Positions 5,060-36,720 of a stretch of DNA of 39,105 nucleotides are shown here, in pieces. Under the pieces are notes generated by a model. That model did not search any database, was not told where the DNA came from, and saw only the letters and a list, made by a program, of their open reading frames with translations. The position numbers and the translations under genes are program-made. Every line of letters starts with the position of its first letter. Within the stretch, counting starts at the first letter, position 1. The DNA is from Patescibacteria group bacterium. Its GTDB lineage: Bacteria; Patescibacteriota; Patescibacteriia; UBA2196. The stretch lies in contig JBDRGZ010000068.1 in the NCBI GenBank assembly GCA_043817345.1, positions 1 through 39,105 of the forward strand, given 5' to 3'.

Positions 5060-6800
5060 AAGGTGGTTATTAAAACCTAAATATCCGCAAGAATTTGCAG
5101 AAAAATTACCGGGCTATAATCCGGTAATTTTGCAATTACTTTATGATCGTGGTTTAGACACACATAAAAAAGTAGATGAGTTTTTAAATCCTGACTATAC
5201 TCAAGACATTTATGATCCTTTTTTGTTTAATGAAATGCAGAAAGCTGTTGATAGAATCAACAAAGCAGTTAAGAATGATGAAAAGATTTTAGTTTACGGA
5301 GACTATGATGCTGATGGTGTTACTTCTACTACACTTTTAGTAAAAACATTAGAAAAAATTAATGCAAAAAATATTGAAATACATATTCCGCATAGGCATT
5401 TGGATGGTTATGGAATGAATAAACAGGCGGTTCAAAACTTTGTTGATAATGGTATAAAATTAGTTATTACTGTTGATTGTGGAATAACAAATATTGAACA
5501 GATAGAATTATTAAAACAAAATAATATTGACACAATTGTTACAGATCACCATTTACAAGCAAAAGAATTACCAGATGCTTTTGCAATTATTAATCCATCA
5601 GTAGAAACAGAAAAATATCCTTTTAAAAAATTAGCTGGAGTAGGGGTTGCTTTTAAATTAGCTCAAGCTCTTTTTAAATCACAGAATGATTCAGAAGATT
5701 ACGAAGCTTTTGAAAAATGGCTTTTAGATGTAGTTACAATTGGGACGATTGGTGATGTAGCTCCCATTTTAGGTGAAAACAGAACTTTGGTTAAATATGG
5801 TTTAATGGTTTTAAATAAAACACCACGCAAAGGTCTAAGAGAATTAATTAGAGTTAGTTCTTTGTCTAATGGGCATGATCCAAGTCAGGAAATTCCTTTA
5901 GGTGAAGATATTTATGAATTAAATGTTAGAAATGTAGCTTGGCAGATTGTGCCACGCATAAATGCAGCTGGTAGAATAGATCATGCCAATTTAGCATACA
6001 CTTTATTAACCACAGAAGATGAAATGGAGGCAGTTGCTTTAGCACAAGATATACATCAAAAAAATTTAGAACGACAGAAAATAGCTGAAACTATGTTAAC
6101 TGAGGCAGAAGAATTAATTGGTAAAGTAACAGATGAAGATAAAATTTTAATTATTGCTAAAGAAGGCTGGCTAGAAGGTATAGTTGGTTTAGTTGCAGGG
6201 AAATTAAAAGATAGATATAACAGACCAATAATATTATTAAATAAAGATGGAGAAAACTATTCTGGTTCAGGTAGAAGTATTTCAGAATTTAATATTACAG
6301 AGGCTTTACAAGAATGTAGTGAATTGCTAGACAGATTTGGTGGACATGCTCAAGCCTGTGGTTTAGGTTTAACTGGAGAAAAGAATTTTAACGGGCTTAA
6401 GGATAAAATTAAATCAATTGCTAATGAAAAGTTAAAAGGTATTGAACTTGTACCAACAATAGAAATTGATGTAGAATTAAAAATGGAGGATTTAAATTGG
6501 GATCTTTGGGATGAAATAGAAAAATTTGAGCCTTTTGCAGAAGCTAACCCATTACCTTTATTTTTAATTAAAAATGTTAAGATAGAAGAAATGGATATAA
6601 TTGGAAAAAATAATAATACATTAAGATTTCAATTGTCTCAGAATAATGAAAAACAAAAAGCAATATCTTTTGGAAAAGTAGAGGAGTGGGGTGATAAAAT
6701 TAAGGTAGGGGATAATATAGATGTTGTTGTCGAGTTTGGTGTGAATGAATGGAATGGAAATAGGGAATTACAATTTAAAATTATTGATTGGAAGAAGTAG
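5046..6800 (+). CDS. recJ: Single-stranded-DNA-specific exonuclease RecJ
   Basis: DHH family motifs: YGDYDADGVTS, VDCGI, VTDHH, GGHAQACG. Confidence 0.9.
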   Translation: MSMSKRWLLKPKYPQEFAEKLPGYNPVILQLLYDRGLDTHKKVDEFLNPDYTQDIYDPFLFNEMQKAVDRINKAVKNDEKILVYGDYDADGVTSTTLLVKTLEKINAKNIEIHIPHRHLDGYGMNKQAVQNFVDNGIKLVITVDCGITNIEQIELLKQNNIDTIVTDHHLQAKELPDAFAIINPSVETEKYPFKKLAGVGVAFKLAQALFKSQNDSEDYEAFEKWLLDVVTIGTIGDVAPILGENRTLVKYGLMVLNKTPRKGLRELIRVSSLSNGHDPSQEIPLGEDIYELNVRNVAWQIVPRINAAGRIDHANLAYTLLTTEDEMEAVALAQDIHQKNLERQKIAETMLTEAEELIGKVTDEDKILIIAKEGWLEGIVGLVAGKLKDRYNRPIILLNKDGENYSGSGRSISEFNITEALQECSELLDRFGGHAQACGLGLTGEKNFNGLKDKIKSIANEKLKGIELVPTIEIDVELKMEDLNWDLWDEIEKFEPFAEANPLPLFLIKNVKIEEMDIIGKNNNTLRFQLSQNNEKQKAISFGKVEEWGDKIKVGDNIDVVVEFGVNEWNGNRELQFKIIDWKK

Positions 6801-7453: not shown

Positions 7454-7480
7454 TTAGCACTCTTGACACGAGAGTGCTAA
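7454..7480. promoter_or_regulatory. CIRCE operator (HrcA binding site)
   Basis: TTAGCACTC-N9-GAGTGCTAA is a perfect match to the CIRCE consensus, upstream of hrcA. Confidence 0.92.
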
Positions 7481-7610: not shown

Positions 7611-7651
7611 GGATCCCTCGACTACTAGCAGCCATAGAGGTCACTCAGGAC
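7611..7651 (-). repeat. Family-A-like single arm (variant)
   Basis: The reverse complement reads GTCCTGAGTGACC...TCGAGGGATCC. It lies 7 nt upstream of the hrcA ATG. Confidence 0.55.
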
Positions 7652-7657
7652 AAGCTT

Positions 7658-8335
7658 ATGAACGAAAGACAAAGTCAATTATTTAAAAATATTGTTGAAG
7701 AATATATCCAAACAGCACAGCCAGTAGGGTCAAAATTGGTAGTGGAAAAATTTAATTTAAATGTCTCGCCAGCTACAGTTCGTAATGATATGGCTGAATT
7801 AGAGAGATACAACCTGATAATCTCCCCTCATACTTCAGCTGGAAGGATACCAACAGAGCATGGATATATAAAATACGTGGAAGAATATATAGAATTAGAT
7901 AAAGAATTATCAAAAGAAGAAGGTGAGGAAGTAAAAAAATTAAGAAATATAGAGGTTGAAGATATTGAGACTAAAATAAAGGAATTAGCCAAAGCCATGG
8001 CTGAAAGAACAAGCTTGGGTGTATTTGTAGGTTTTGCTAGAAATAATGTATATTATACTGGTTTATCAAATATATTTTCACAACCAGAATTTCAAAACTT
8101 AAATTTAATTCAAAACATATCTACAGTTATTGATCATTTAGATGATGTAATGGGAGAGATATATGATTCAATCACTAAAACAGAAGTTAAAATCGGTAGT
8201 AGTAATCCATTTTCAAATGATTGTTCCGTAGTTATTACTAAGGTTAAAGATTTTTTGATAGGAATTATGGGACCAATGAGGATGGATTATCAGAATAATC
8301 TTAATTTATTAAATTTTATTAAAAATATTTTATGA
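7658..8335 (+). CDS. hrcA: Heat-inducible transcription repressor HrcA (short form)
   Basis: The N-terminal winged helix has QPVGSK...VSPATVRNDMAELE...PHTSAGRIPT. A CIRCE operator lies upstream and its stop overlaps the grpE start in ATGA. Confidence 0.85.
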   Translation: MNERQSQLFKNIVEEYIQTAQPVGSKLVVEKFNLNVSPATVRNDMAELERYNLIISPHTSAGRIPTEHGYIKYVEEYIELDKELSKEEGEEVKKLRNIEVEDIETKIKELAKAMAERTSLGVFVGFARNNVYYTGLSNIFSQPEFQNLNLIQNISTVIDHLDDVMGEIYDSITKTEVKIGSSNPFSNDCSVVITKVKDFLIGIMGPMRMDYQNNLNLLNFIKNIL

Positions 8336-8796
8336 CCAAAAAACAAGACAAAAAATCAAATATTAAAGAATTACAAGAAAAATGTGATGAATATTTACAT
8401 GGTTGGAAAAGAGCAATGGTTGATTATGAGAATTTTAAAAAACAATCGGAAAAAGAGAAAGAAGAATTTGTTAAATTTGCTAATACAAATTTAGTAATGT
8501 CATTAATCCCTGTATATAACAATTTAAAGTTAGCTTTAGAACATTCACCAGATGATGATTGGGCAAAAGGTATAGATCATATTCAGAAACAGTTTAATCA
8601 AGTTTTAGAACATAATGGCGTTGATGAAGTTTTGCCTAAAATAGGCGGGAAGTTTAATCCAGAAGAACATGAAGCCGTTGAGCAAAATTTAAAACATAAC
8701 CAACAAAACACAGAAAATAAAATTTCTAAAATAATTAGTTGTGGCTATAAATTAAATAATAAAGTGTTTATTCCAGCTAAAGTAATTGTAAAATAA
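8332..8796 (+). CDS. grpE: Nucleotide exchange factor GrpE
   Basis: YLHGWKRAMVDYENFKKQ ... FNPEEHEAV ... GYKLNNKVFIPAKV. Confidence 0.9.
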   Translation: MTKKQDKKSNIKELQEKCDEYLHGWKRAMVDYENFKKQSEKEKEEFVKFANTNLVMSLIPVYNNLKLALEHSPDDDWAKGIDHIQKQFNQVLEHNGVDEVLPKIGGKFNPEEHEAVEQNLKHNQQNTENKISKIISCGYKLNNKVFIPAKVIVK

Positions 8797-8848: not shown

Positions 8849-9265
8849 ATGTCTATGTCATTAATAAAATGGACTCCAATGTCTTTAGATCCTTTCGATG
8901 ATTTTTTTGATTTTCCTTCCATGAGACCTGGAAATTTTACACCGGCCATGGATATCTGGCAAGATGAAGAAAATATTTATGCTGAATGTCCTTTAGCAGG
9001 TGTTGACCCTAAAAACGTTGAGGTATCAGTTGAAAATGATATTTTAACTGTCCAGGGCAAAACAGAACAAAAAAGTGAGGTTGAAGAAAAAGAATATTAC
9101 AGGAAAGAAGTTAGGTTTGGTAGTTTCCACCGTTCAGTAGCTTTACCAGCTGCAGTAAACAACGAACGCGTTTCAGCAGAATTTGAAAAAGGAGTTTTAA
9201 AGATTACTTTACCAAAAGAAGATAGAGTTAAACCTAAAAAAATTGATGTAAAGATTAAATCTTAA
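8849..9265 (+). CDS. Small heat-shock protein (Hsp20/alpha-crystallin family)
   Basis: Alpha-crystallin domain: PAMDIWQDEENIYAECPLAGVDPKNVEVSVENDILTVQG...FGSFHRSVALP...GVLKITLPK. Confidence 0.9.
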   Translation: MSMSLIKWTPMSLDPFDDFFDFPSMRPGNFTPAMDIWQDEENIYAECPLAGVDPKNVEVSVENDILTVQGKTEQKSEVEEKEYYRKEVRFGSFHRSVALPAAVNNERVSAEFEKGVLKITLPKEDRVKPKKIDVKIKS

Positions 9266-9273
9266 TCTTTTCC

Positions 9274-9303
9274 CTTTGTCCTAAAATATTTTTTAGGACA
9301 AGG
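9274..9303. terminator. Strong hairpin after hsp20 (bidirectional terminator-like)
   Basis: TTGTCCTAAAA / TTTTAGGACAA 11-bp stem with a short AT loop; A/T runs are part of the stem. Confidence 0.55.
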
Positions 9304-9320
9304 ATGAGAAGATAAAATAT

Positions 9321-11811: not shown

Positions 11812-11851
11812 GAATAAAGAATTATGAATTAAGGGATTTATTGGAATAACT

Positions 11852-11926
11852 GTTCCGAACTTTTAAGGTCGTTGGCCCGCCCGCAACGCCTGAGCAGCTA
11901 GCGATGGCGGGCGGGGAGTTCGGGAC
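11852..11926. repeat. GC-rich long palindromic element (CCCGCC type) downstream of dnaK
   Basis: The outer stem GTTCCGAAC/GTTCGGGAC has one mismatch; the inner stem CCCGCCCGC/GCGGGCGGG is perfect. It contains the ACTTTTAAGGTCG module also present in family-A copies. Confidence 0.75.
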
Positions 11927-11986
11927 TTTTTAAGAATTTTTTGTCAAGCATTGTGGATAAGTAAGCCCGTCAAACGAGCCAAGAAA

Positions 11987-12069
11987 AACAAAAACCGCTA
12001 AAATTAGCGGAATTTGTGGGGTTTTAGACGCCCCGGTTAAGACAATTAGGAACTTGACATCCTCATGTT
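11987..12069 (-). ncRNA. Candidate ~80-nt sRNA with 5' end antisense to the neighbouring tRNA-like RNA
   Basis: Minus-strand promoter: TTGACA (12104-12099), 17-nt spacer, TGtTATACT (12081-12076). Terminator: CCGCTA-ATTT-TAGCGG plus TTTTTGTTTTT (12010-11984). The first 16 nt, ACATGAGGATGTCAAG, complement 15 of 16 nt of the tRNA-like RNA. Confidence 0.4.
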
Positions 12070-12083
12070 TATTTAAGTATAAC
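12054..12083 (+). promoter_or_regulatory. Possible plus-strand promoter facing the DUF3467-dnaJ operon
   Basis: TTGACA (12054-12059), 18-nt spacer, TATAAC (12078-12083). It overlaps the minus-strand -10 element. Confidence 0.35.
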
Positions 12084-12127
12084 AAAATATAAAAAAATTG
12101 TCAAAATTTTTTTTACGGACTGGTCAG

Positions 12128-12198
12128 TGGTGGAGGTGAGGGGAATCGAACCCCCGACACGAGGATGTCAAGACCTGTGTCCTAACCGTAGCACCCCC
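12128..12198 (-). ncRNA. 71-nt tmRNA-TLD-like / tRNA-Ala-like RNA (no D stem, no tag ORF)
   Basis: The reverse complement is GGGGGTG CTACGGTTAG GACACAGG TCTTGACAT CCTCGTGTC GGGGG TTCGATT CCCCT CACCTCC ACCA. It has a 7-bp acceptor stem with G3:U70, A73, an encoded CCA and a T-arm. The 5' end resembles the tmRNA start GGGG..G.UACGGAUUCGACA. Confidence 0.55.
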
Positions 12199-12263
12199 AC
12201 GCAACTGAACACAGCCCGCACACTAATTATAACATAATTTAATAAATTAATTATTAAAAAAAT

Positions 12264-35313: not shown

Positions 35314-36555
35314 ATGATCAAGAAGGAAAATGATAAAATTTTAAACTTTGCTCCAGATTTTTTATGGGGAACTGCCACATCAGCTCATCAAATTGAAGGT
35401 GATAATTTTAATTCTGATTGGTGGGCTTTTGAAGAGAATAAAGAGCTTAAACATGCTTCTTTAAAAGCTTGTAATAGTTATGAATTGTGGAAAAAGGATC
35501 ATTCTTGTATTGATCAAATGAATAATAACGCATATAGGTTATCAATTGAATGGGCCAAGATAGAACCACAAGAAGGTAAGTTTAATCATGATGCTATGCA
35601 TCATTATGTAGAAATGATATCAGATTTAAAAGCTAAAAACATTAAAGTAATGCTTACTTTACATCATTTTACTAATCCTAATTGGTTTTTAAATAAAGGG
35701 GGATGGGTAAGCTTTAAAAGTGTAAAATATTTTAAAAGATATGTTAAATATGTTTTAGAACATTTAGGTGGATTAGTAGATTTTTGGATCACAATTAATG
35801 AACCAGGAATTTATGCAGATCTAAGCTATCTAAAAGGCAAATGGCCACCTAAATTAAAAAGTCCTAAAAAAGCTTTTCTTGTATATATTAATATGGCTAG
35901 GGCACACAAGATGGCATATAACCTGATTCATAAGACATTAGAAGATCCACAGGTTGGATTTGCAATGAATGTGCATTCATTTGCCTCATATCATAAACAC
36001 AGATTAATTGAGTTGCTATATGTACATTTGGCAGATAGATTTGTAAACCATTCTTTTTATGATTTAACAAAGAAAAAACACGATTTTTTAGGAATCAATT
36101 ACTATTTCCGAGTACGGTTGAAAAAAGATGAAGGAAGTATGAAGCCTGTGGTAGAAAAGATTAAGGAAACAGAGAGAGAACTGTCTGATTTAGGTTGGAT
36201 GATTTACCCACATGGAATATTTGATGTTTTAATGGATCTTGAAGATTTTAAAACCCCAATATATATTACTGAAAACGGGATAGCTGCTCAAGATGATGAG
36301 AAAAGGCAAAGATTTTTAATTGAACATTTAAAAGAAATTCATCATGCAATTCAAGCAGGAGTAGATGTGCGAGGATATTTTCATTGGTCTTTATTAGATA
36401 ATTTTGAATGGGCAGACGGTTTTGATCCTAAATTTGGTTTAGTTGAAGTAAATCTTAAAACATTTGAACGCAAGTTAAAAACTAGTGCTAAAATGTATTC
36501 AGAGATCGCAAAAACAAATTCTTTAGATGAAAGAAAACTAAAAAGTATCACCTAA
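35314..36555 (+). CDS. Beta-glucosidase, glycoside hydrolase family 1
   Basis: FLWGTATSAHQIEG, TINEP (acid/base Glu), YITENG (nucleophile Glu), WSLLDNFEW. Confidence 0.9.
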   Translation: MIKKENDKILNFAPDFLWGTATSAHQIEGDNFNSDWWAFEENKELKHASLKACNSYELWKKDHSCIDQMNNNAYRLSIEWAKIEPQEGKFNHDAMHHYVEMISDLKAKNIKVMLTLHHFTNPNWFLNKGGWVSFKSVKYFKRYVKYVLEHLGGLVDFWITINEPGIYADLSYLKGKWPPKLKSPKKAFLVYINMARAHKMAYNLIHKTLEDPQVGFAMNVHSFASYHKHRLIELLYVHLADRFVNHSFYDLTKKKHDFLGINYYFRVRLKKDEGSMKPVVEKIKETERELSDLGWMIYPHGIFDVLMDLEDFKTPIYITENGIAAQDDEKRQRFLIEHLKEIHHAIQAGVDVRGYFHWSLLDNFEWADGFDPKFGLVEVNLKTFERKLKTSAKMYSEIAKTNSLDERKLKSIT

Positions 36556-36556
36556 G

Positions 36557-36720
36557 TAAATTATTCTAATTAACCTAATTACTCTAATTATTCTAAATAA
36601 TAACCAGATCCCAATAAACTAAATAAATTAAAATATAAAATATTTTTTTGGCACATTAGTTATTAGGTATTGGGATTTATTTAGGTTAATTAGTATAATT
36701 AGAATAATTAGTTTAATTCT
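36557..36720. repeat. Complex AT-rich inverted/direct repeat region
   Basis: ATTATTCTAATTA, CTAATTAACCTAA and ATCCCAATA on the left recur reverse-complemented on the right (TAATTAGAATAAT, TTAGGTTAATTAG, TATTGGGAT), around a centre near 36640. Confidence 0.55.

Follow-up and report, generated by a model that had tools for sequence, protein, structure and literature searches.

Organisation of the locus

The 39,105-nucleotide contig JBDRGZ010000068.1 of a Patescibacteria group bacterium, analysed here over its whole length and referred to as the window, carries on its minus strand a 71-nt gene (RNA1) that is related to transfer-messenger RNA (tmRNA) and retains only the tRNA-like domain. RNA1 is contained in a GC-rich segment of ~400 nt that is inserted after dnaK and before DUF3467-dnaJ, on the strand opposite to the heat-shock operon that surrounds it (hrcA-grpE-hsp20-dnaK followed by DUF3467-dnaJ), and is accompanied by a predicted small RNA (sRNA) gene, RNA2, downstream on the same strand, a part of which is complementary to RNA1. 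The window has a GC content of ~30% and a streamlined gene set like that of the candidate phyla radiation (CPR), including PFOR, acetate kinase, an archaeal-type ProRS and many glycosyltransferases. The whole locus is 100% identical in an independent assembly (ENA contig L001). The parts of the cassette are as follows.

12226..12234, minus strand: RNA1 promoter, extended -10 element TGTTATAAT (TG at 12234-12233, TATAAT at 12231-12226), read from the sequence
12199..12219, minus strand: RNA1 5' leader GCGGGCUGUGUUCAGUUGCGU, pairing with the 3' trailer
12128..12198, minus strand: RNA1, tmRNA-like gene of 71 nt without a coding sequence (CDS-less), from sequence, fold, RF00023 alignment and stem covariation in homologues
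12198-12192, minus strand: RNA1 acceptor stem, 5' strand (sequence and fold)
12191-12182, minus strand: RNA1 D-loop-like linker, 10 nt, GG-containing, with no D-stem
12181-12156, minus strand: RNA1 P2-like hairpin (sequence and fold)
12155-12139, minus strand: RNA1 T-arm, with a 5-bp T-stem and the loop UUCGAUU
12138-12132, minus strand: RNA1 acceptor stem, 3' strand
12131, minus strand: RNA1 discriminator A73
12130-12128, minus strand: RNA1 encoded CCA
12116..12127, minus strand: RNA1 3' trailer CUGACCAGUCCG, pairing with the leader (fold and sequence)
12076..12104, minus strand: RNA2 promoter, TTGACA-17 nt-TATACT with a TG extension, 11 of 12 consensus matches
11985..12070, minus strand: RNA2, sRNA of ~85 nt (5' end inferred) lying ~60 nt downstream of RNA1, from promoter, terminator and fold
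12068-12034, minus strand: RNA2 antisense segment
12034-12018, minus strand: RNA2 small hairpin
12010-11995, minus strand: RNA2 intrinsic terminator, with U-tract
11852..11926, no strand assigned: GC-rich long hairpin at the tail of the insert, from inverted repeat I8 and fold

Among 75 metagenome loci fetched via the adjacent DUF3467 protein, the synteny of dnaK and DUF3467 is kept in all 75 and the element is present in none. The closest relatives (93% and 82% identical) are without the insert; the dnaK-DUF3467 spacer is ~45 nt in the 82% relative, and the same slot in the 93% relative and others is occupied by unrelated small protein genes on the minus strand. The cassette has a GC content of 46.5%, against 30% for the genome and 18-32% for other intergenic regions, and segment 11850-11994 reaches 50%. 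Since RNA1 is absent from the syntenic relatives, the ~400-nt segment is a lineage-specific insert at a variable spot, and since the insert is missing there, the locus is not an ancestral ssrA site. A first-pass annotation, made from the sequence alone, had considered a deletion remnant among three possibilities; as a remnant at an ssrA locus, this one does not agree with the absence of the insert from the relatives. As all 75 syntenic loci are without the element, the lineage itself offers no covariation for the window cassette. Neither the window nor the 716 kb of DNA compared holds a further copy of the cassette, and no recombinase gene lies near it. The Pfam scan of 37 open reading frames of the window gave neither an integrase nor an SmpB domain, and ARAGORN and Rfam found no full-length tmRNA in the 39 kb.

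The hairpin at 11852-11926 (GUUCCGAAC..GGCCCGCCCGC..GCGGGCGGGG..GUUCGGGAC) reads on the plus strand as a dnaK terminator (terminator-like site at 11908-11922) and may be a third part of the cassette.

The dnaK-DUF3467 spacer is a hot spot (window positions 11812-12263 compared with L029, L030, L031, L033 and L034): the genes in the slot differ among the relatives, each with a strong TTGACA/TGnTATAAT promoter and a terminator, and one relative has an empty slot.

RNA1 as a tmRNA reduced to its tRNA-like domain

The sequence of RNA1 is GGGGGUG-CUACGGUUAG-GACACAGG-UCUUGACAU-CCUCGUGUC-GGGGG-UUCGAUU-CCCCU-CACCUCC-ACCA. A 71-nt tRNA-like element at 12128-12198 with G3:U70, A73, an encoded CCA, a canonical T-arm and no D-stem had been described in the first-pass annotation, and it was recovered at exactly these coordinates and confirmed by sequence and fold; the acceptor stem is a perfect helix of 7 bp that includes G3:U70. 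The 8-bp hairpin with its 9-nt loop, likewise described there, stands as regards the pairs and the loop but not as an unbroken stem, the pairs being arranged as 5 + 3 bp with one bulged C on the 3' strand; the hairpin abuts the T-arm.

The tmRNA covariance model RF00023 aligns globally to RNA1 over model positions 1-374, with 328 interior positions deleted, at 34.7 bits and E=5.5e-13 (for a 126-nt search, which amounts to ~1e-10 over the whole window; the gathering score is 47). Model positions 1-17 and 346-374 are aligned with high posterior probability, and the 26 nt between these two ends form the hairpin with the 9-nt loop. RF00023 is the best match of clan CL00001 at RNA1, lower-scoring members of the clan being suppressed; a permissive wide Rfam scan had given a misleading truncated alignment at 14.4 bits, and the tighter interval yielded the end-to-end alignment. 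The covariance-model search that had been proposed as a check thus identifies the element as tmRNA and not as an ordinary tRNA fragment, and the alignment of both ends around a deleted interior sustains the earlier description of a tmRNA-derived domain without the mRNA-like and pseudoknot part.

Compared with standard tmRNA (SsrA, RF00023), the 5' GGGGGUG.UACGGUU..GAC and the 3' GGGGGUUCGAUUCCCCUCACCUCCACCA of RNA1 match the family consensus, whereas RNA1 is ~300 nt shorter (P2 beyond 8 bp, PK1-4, resume codon and tag frame), scores 34.7 bits against the gathering 47 and is not called by ARAGORN. The pseudoknots PK1-PK4 and the long helix P2 are missing with the 328 deleted model positions, ARAGORN detects no tag frame in RNA1, and a resume codon and a stop codon are likewise missing. 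RNA1 does not form the tRNA cloverleaf (RF00005) either, with no D-stem, a hairpin of 8 bp with a 9-nt loop, and no call by ARAGORN or, at the gathering score, by RF00005. In the window, ARAGORN and Rfam at the gathering score report five ordinary tRNAs only, none at RNA1, which should warn annotators that both ARAGORN and the Rfam gathering thresholds miss this class of RNA.

The region of the putative RNA1 promoter is 83% identical over 23 nt to that of the RNA2 promoter (direct repeat D1), and the promoter is of the same TGn-TAnAAT type as those of the small genes that occupy this slot in the relatives; the consensus promoter scan missed it because it has no -35 hexamer. The precursor composed of leader, RNA1 and trailer folds into one extended rod of -51.9 kcal/mol. 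Leader/trailer helices also flank the similar elements in L020, L002 and L018 that are described below.

CDS-less tmRNAs have been catalogued before. A 2025 tmRNA database lists mitochondrial tmRNAs without a tag frame and two CDS-less plastid genes of ~65 bp, and states that the CDS-less tmRNA of mycobacteriophage DS6A inhibits the endogenous tmRNA in E. coli (PMC11915505). The DS6A element was located at L135 28478-28556 and has the same architecture as RNA1: a 7-bp acceptor stem with G3:U70 and A73, a stemless D-loop, a hairpin replacing P2, a canonical T-arm and neither tag frame nor pseudoknots; the tmRNA covariance model aligns both ends of RNA1. Mao et al. 2009 is said to be the source for the DS6A CDS-less tmRNA, and Jacob et al. 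2004 that for the jakobid mitochondrial tmRNAs. RNA1 has the CDS-less layout, that is, a tRNA-like domain of ~55-85 nt and nothing else, a hairpin standing in for everything between the P2 strands. It differs from the DS6A element in lying on a CPR-type bacterial chromosome and not in a phage or organelle, in encoding CCA and having a leader/trailer helix, in being coupled to a dedicated antisense sRNA (no clear partner for DS6A, z=-2.1) and in belonging to a module family that forms tandem diversified arrays. As the DS6A and organelle forms are described, a tmRNA consisting of the tRNA-like domain only is already known, and RNA1 is a further member in a new host group.

The 3' 25 nt of RNA1 are identical to the permuted tmRNA of cyanophage S-CAM1, with the acceptor stem and 5' segment nearly the same; this 25-nt tmRNA 3' end is the sole match in a BLAST search of the cassette against phages. 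Viral scans with the 5' sequence of the window element and with both CPR types of RNA1 gave chance matches only.

Two-piece permuted tmRNAs (alpha- and beta-proteobacteria, cyanobacteria and cyanophages; RF04321, RF01849-51) resemble the cassette in having two base-pairing RNAs from one locus. Nevertheless, the gene order in the window is the standard one, RNA2 pairs inside a complete tRNA-like domain without completing the acceptor stem, and RNA2 carries no tag frame. A permuted tmRNA was rejected, as RF04321 reaches no more than 18-20 bits (gathering score 47), with a local match only on the T-arm, CCA and spacer; the candidate strand downstream, GAGGAUG, mispairs at two of the seven acceptor positions, and the 5' strand comes first. 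The first-pass suggestion of an acceptor module in a multi-piece RNA holds in so far as a partner exists, but this partner is antisense to nt 11-42 and supplies no coding piece.

Other identities were tried and set aside. An att-site remnant of an island in ssrA does not agree with the presence of both halves of RNA1, and no ssrA or integrase occurs within 39 kb; a Y-RNA-like (YrlA) identity has no Rfam match. A D-armless decoding tRNA with the anticodon UGA was rejected because an 8-bp stem with a 9-nt loop is unfit as an anticodon arm and UCA codons are read as Ser: the UCA codons of dnaK, dnaJ, grpE and DUF3467 align with Ser in relatives in the same way as UCU, so that no recoding is indicated.

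RNA2 and its predicted pairing with RNA1

The RNA2 promoter is the only promoter-like site found in the 700 nt scanned. Folded alone, RNA2 has a z-score of -3.6, and its antisense part is mostly unpaired. The 5' 35 nt of RNA2 are complementary to RNA1 nt 11-42, that is, to the D-loop and the whole hairpin, and the resulting duplex comprises ~30 bp in three blocks with a 16-nt core of 94% (z=-5.5 against shuffled flanks; the fold of the wider region has z=-6.6). The heteroduplex gains ~28 kcal/mol over the separate folds of the two RNAs. The hairpin loops UCUUGACAU of RNA1 and AUGUCAAG of RNA2 are perfectly complementary over 8 nt, a kissing-loop antisense geometry, and the mismatches between RNA1 and RNA2 are G:U wobbles on the minus strand only.

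RNA2 also contains a mini-ORF, MRMSSS (12065-12045, minus strand; AUG AGG AUG UCA AGU UCC UAA), which was discarded because it is unconserved in the other modules. The frame uses three different Ser codons, and the GAGG against its second AUG is too near for a normal ribosome-binding site; it is probably due to chance.

Elsewhere in the window (28441-28515, plus strand), ARAGORN calls a tRNA-Ser(UGA) that scores 53 bits to RF00005, has no long variable arm and carries an acceptor G3:U70 and A73. Its anticodon loop CUUGACA is the same heptamer as in the hairpin loop of RNA1 and is complementary to the RNA2 loop.

Two-RNA modules in other genomes

The same architecture recurs outside the window. 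As defined from L002, L129, L130, L133 and L018, the module consists, in same-strand order, of a 65-71-nt D-armless tRNA-shaped RNA, a promoter-bearing spacer, an sRNA with a 14-35-nt complement to RNA1 and a terminator, and the window cassette, with its tRNA-like RNA and cognate antisense sRNA, has this organisation. Same-strand downstream complementarity has z=-5.5 in the window, -7.0 in L018 and -4.0 in L002; in the latter two, promoter-like and terminator signals surround the complement, and TTGACA-like promoters (TTGAC..TGTTAT) stand at the same place in the L129, L130, L133 and L002 modules. The modules other than that of L002 are located as follows.

L018, 1646-1971: 325-nt insertion just after the groEL terminator, compared with the 96% relative L122, which has an empty site
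L133, 1500-2470, minus strand: three tandem modules (a, b and c) upstream of RNase Y in a Parcubacteria-type genome
L129, ~2230-2470: module upstream of RNase Y
L130, ~2280-2510: module upstream of RNase Y

A 5-bp duplication, CTATT, flanks the L018 insertion, the inverted termini of which are CTGGC/GCCAG. Among the relatives of L002 anchored on RNase Y, one at 73% is without the cassette, while L129 and L130 (~94%) have an identical architecture with a different RNA1, the slot, the terminator and the upstream motif being the same. This L129-type RNA1 is 68 nt long and tRNA-shaped, with G3:C70 and the T-loop CGCAAGU, and no Rfam model recognises it in L129, L130, L133a or L133b. The L133, L129 and L130 modules share the promoter motif TTTAGATAGTTTTAAT and the terminator and show co-variation of their specificity loops; L133a and L133b are of the L129 type with different loops, and the RNA2 of L133c has a perfect 14-nt complement to the hairpin loop of its RNA1.

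In the four L129-type modules, pairing of the 27-pair helix between RNA1 and RNA2 is 100%, compared with 29-41% in slid-register controls. Five of its pairs differ in both partners, and these cluster in the variable loop; swapped RNA1:RNA2 duplexes are less stable than cognate ones. Several of the conserved G:U pairs would turn into A-C mismatches if the other strand were read, so that selection acts on the RNA of this strand. In one case, a G-to-A change in RNA1 is accompanied by matching changes in its intramolecular partner and in RNA2, which shows that the fold of RNA1 and the duplex both matter.

Of the 27 matches that a structural pattern search obtained in 185,579 species genomes, most were ordinary tRNAs preceded by GGGG..TACGG, and only two were further CPR-type copies. 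The genuine look-alikes are L020 (Patescibacteria), L002 (CPR; a chromosome of 829 kb, with an RNase Y that falls among those of Parcubacteria-type CPR) and L018 (Vulcanimicrobiota/Eremiobacterota). The three score 29-33 bits in the end-to-end alignment to the tmRNA model. L020, L002 and L133c align to the tmRNA model end to end with the size and layout of RNA1 (29-39 bits), as does the shorter L018 element (31.2 bits); the RNA1 of L133c is a close homologue of that of the window and scores 38.9 bits. The window, L020 and L002 elements have identical dimensions and the D-loop N-UACGGUUA-N, and their hairpins share no sequence yet pair, seven of eight pairs being changed on both sides. Acceptor and T-stem covariation is strong across ten members, a result that is partly circular because part of the set was chosen for good stems.

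Matches L003, L008, L011 and L013 of the pattern scan were rejected for poor folds. L025 (112-176) was rejected as a mini-tmRNA as well: only its 3' ~27 nt copy the full tmRNA that lies 5.8 kb away (6020-6384, tag AKNELALAA), and it has an acceptor mismatch, no good hairpin and a chance 5' match. This 3'-only copy with an imperfect acceptor is a displaced remnant, the far border of a small island integrated into ssrA, and the window element is unlike it.

Compact D-armless G3:U70 elements also occur on phage contigs, in tRNA arrays (L114, L106 and L107) and beside full-length tmRNAs (L112, L117 and L118; L117 8239-8664). One of them is found 2 nt past a full phage tmRNA (tag ANEQFALAA), another sits inside a 20-tRNA array that also has a normal tRNA-Ala, and L107 holds two different elements (7650-7722 and 9221-9304); the L114 element is at 8513-8593. 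In L020, the 5' half of the mini-tmRNA is repeated in part, in direct and not in inverted orientation (CUUACCGAGGUCGACG vs CUUAUCGAGGUCGACA), after the terminator and ~75 nt downstream of the gene (~6715-6745, minus strand).

Interpretation and alternative explanations

The reading favoured here, to which a probability of about 55% is given, is that the ~400-nt cassette in the dnaK-dnaJ operon is a horizontally acquired two-RNA unit in which RNA1, a CDS-less tmRNA reduced to its tRNA-like domain, serves as a tmRNA mimic held in check by its cognate antisense RNA2. RNA1 would be transcribed from its own extended -10 promoter with a paired leader and trailer, and its structure suggests that RNase P would cut at G1. 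It carries all known AlaRS determinants (G3:U70, A73 and CCA) and may be alanylated; lacking a resume codon, a tag frame and the pseudoknots, it cannot tag proteins. By analogy with the DS6A mini-tmRNA, it would most likely act as a mimic or competitor of tmRNA. RNA2 would be made from the strong promoter ~60 nt downstream and end at the intrinsic terminator. Pairing is predicted to start as a kiss of the two 8-9-nt loops and, on extension, to open up the D-loop and hairpin of RNA1 and probably its acceptor stem as well, whereby RNA2 would neutralise RNA1 or mark it for cleavage; that RNA2 regulates RNA1, and not the reverse, is itself a reading of the sequence. The logic may be likened to an antisense-controlled RNA toxin/antitoxin or immunity pair. 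Among the three options of the first-pass annotation, the best fit is that of a reduced ssrA derivative open to alanylation but incapable of tagging; that annotation was silent on the downstream antisense unit and on the CDS-less tmRNAs of PMC11915505.

A bolder version, in which the cassette is an RNA-only addiction or immunity module whose alanine-charged RNA1 poisons or hijacks trans-translation, with RNA2 as the antidote, mobile and diversifying in tandem arrays, is offered tentatively and is less probable. Tandem type I toxin-antitoxin (TA) families (Ibs/Sib, Ldr/Rdl) and RNA-RNA type VIII pairs offer an analogy: they are small, sporadic and often tandem modules with cognate-specific antisense RNAs, and they sit in intergenic hot spots. 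The cassette differs from them in that RNA1 encodes no toxic peptide and in that both RNAs lie on the same strand as an inverted repeat, not as overlapping cis-antisense genes.

Several observations weigh against the mimic reading. The compensatory RNA1:RNA2 changes were seen in L129, L130 and L133a/b, that is, in other genomes and not at the locus of the window, in whose own lineage no relative has the cassette; as the insertion is recent, the intactness of RNA1 could reflect youth and not selection. The target of the antisense RNA varies: in the window, L018 and L129 it is the 5' half of RNA1, in L133c the loop and in L002 the 3' end. No significant downstream antisense partner was found for L020, L106, L107, L114 or DS6A. 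The G3:C70 and non-canonical T-loop of the L129-type RNA1 imply that alanylation is not essential to the module as a whole. Since long intergenic inverted repeats without tRNA shape are common in that CPR clade, some of the complementarity may operate at the DNA level.

Recency also speaks for regarding the cassette as an inert relic, either a young non-functional scar of mobile DNA whose parent element bore or targeted a tmRNA gene or an internally deleted copy of ssrA, with RNA1 a pseudogene: the insert is absent from the closest relatives and foreign in GC, tmRNA genes are common integration sites of which fragments such as L025 occur, and the L018 cassette has a target-site duplication like that of a mobile element. 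Such a relic is considered unlikely, as both tRNA-like halves are present and pair perfectly, whereas L025 copies only the 3' part; neither an integrase nor a full ssrA lies within 39 kb; both RNAs have promoters of the host-lineage type and RNA2 a terminator; the homologues keep their structure via compensatory changes; and tandem diversified arrays are not expected of scars. The insertion character, together with repeat arms that are themselves hairpins, the 5-bp target duplication and 5-bp terminal inverted repeats of L018, and the frequency of rod-like inverted repeats in the related CPR clade, could also be taken to mean that the inverted repeats are recombination or transposition sites (MITE/REPIN-like or invertible) and that the tRNA shape is incidental. 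This is the least probable of the explanations weighed: the arms are internal and not terminal to the inserted segment, which is single-copy in the window and in the 716 kb compared, without MITE/REPIN copies or a nearby recombinase gene; the 5' strand of the acceptor, although not part of the repeat, forms perfect pairs with the 3' strand, which is; T-stem and acceptor stem outside the repeat also covary, and the mismatches are G:U on one strand only.

The roles of the two RNAs might also be reversed, as in C4 of phages P1 and P7, with RNA1 an antisense regulator released by RNase P and the same-strand stretch downstream its target; the unit would then control read-through or stability of a downstream transcript, and the tmRNA likeness would serve processing and stability only. 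Within the operon of C4 its targets are situated downstream, and they co-vary between P1 and P7, two heteroimmune phages; Citron and Schuster 1990 is reportedly the source for this co-variation of pairing specificity. The cassettes share this layout of a tRNA-like RNA followed by a same-strand complement with module-specific co-variation, L133c has a weak C4 match (19.8 bits, E=0.78; gathering score 45), the L129-type RNA1 keeps its structure despite the loss of G3:U70 and of the T-loop consensus, and RNA1 is without a clear terminator of its own, so that co-transcription with the target is possible. C4 itself is a tRNA-like RNase P substrate (PMC2190699). The reversed roles are nonetheless judged improbable: the window has no C4 (RF01695) match at E<=10, no regulated protein gene follows RNA2 on its strand (past the terminator comes the convergent dnaK end), the target segment is served by a strong promoter of its own, and RNA1 keeps every AlaRS and CCA feature, the alanine identity and CCA being unneeded in a processing handle; moreover, the complementarity spans 14-35 nt in place of the two short boxes of C4. 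A housekeeping role, in which RNA1 is the only tmRNA of the organism and, jakobid-like, rescues ribosomes with SmpB without tagging, would suit the highly reduced genomes of CPR bacteria and the lack of a full tmRNA in the 39-kb window. It is very unlikely, because none of the 75 syntenic relatives has the element at this locus, the pattern scan of 185,579 species genomes turned up just two further copies of CPR type, RNA1 adjoins an RNA fit to unfold it, phage copies lie beside full-length tmRNAs, and L133 has the element in one of three tandem paralogous modules.

The setting of RNA1 extends what is described of CDS-less tmRNAs, which so far come from organelles and one phage, the phage form inhibiting the host tmRNA. 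Here such an RNA lies on a bacterial chromosome in a CPR organism and is wired to a dedicated antisense RNA. The two-RNA architecture is found again elsewhere, where it co-evolves, forms tandem duplicates and is inserted as a discrete cassette. As far as could be found, neither the chromosomal CPR setting nor the co-evolving antisense coupling in mobile, tandemly diversifying cassettes has been described. If the pair works as suggested, it would offer a compact, testable system and raise the questions of what a message-less tRNA-like domain does on the ribosome, whether an RNA mimic can switch off trans-translation and how such a mimic is controlled. If the addiction or immunity version is true, it would represent a new RNA-only, TA-like class built wholly from ribosome-rescue RNA in minimal-genome bacteria.

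Other features of the window and of related genomes

A link of the module to heat shock (dnaK here, groEL in L018) was considered and rejected, as other modules adjoin RNase Y, a cyclase or AstB; the heat-shock neighbourhood probably arose by chance or because sites that follow strong terminators are preferred. A perfect CIRCE operator (TTAGCACTC-N9-GAGTGCTAA; 7454-7480, plus strand) lies upstream of hrcA and overlaps a TTGACA, as expected for HrcA control of the heat-shock operon.

Long rod-like intergenic hairpins occur in the same CPR clade at L132 2733-2917 and at L002 3124-3265 and 1082-1207, with arms of 32-41 nt, a structured interior, no tRNA shape and no internal promoter; one of them occupies the same slot as the modules upstream of RNase Y. 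The window has an AT-rich inverted repeat at 36550-36718, with 38-nt arms and a 93-nt spacer, between the genes for a GH1 glycosidase and an EamA transporter.

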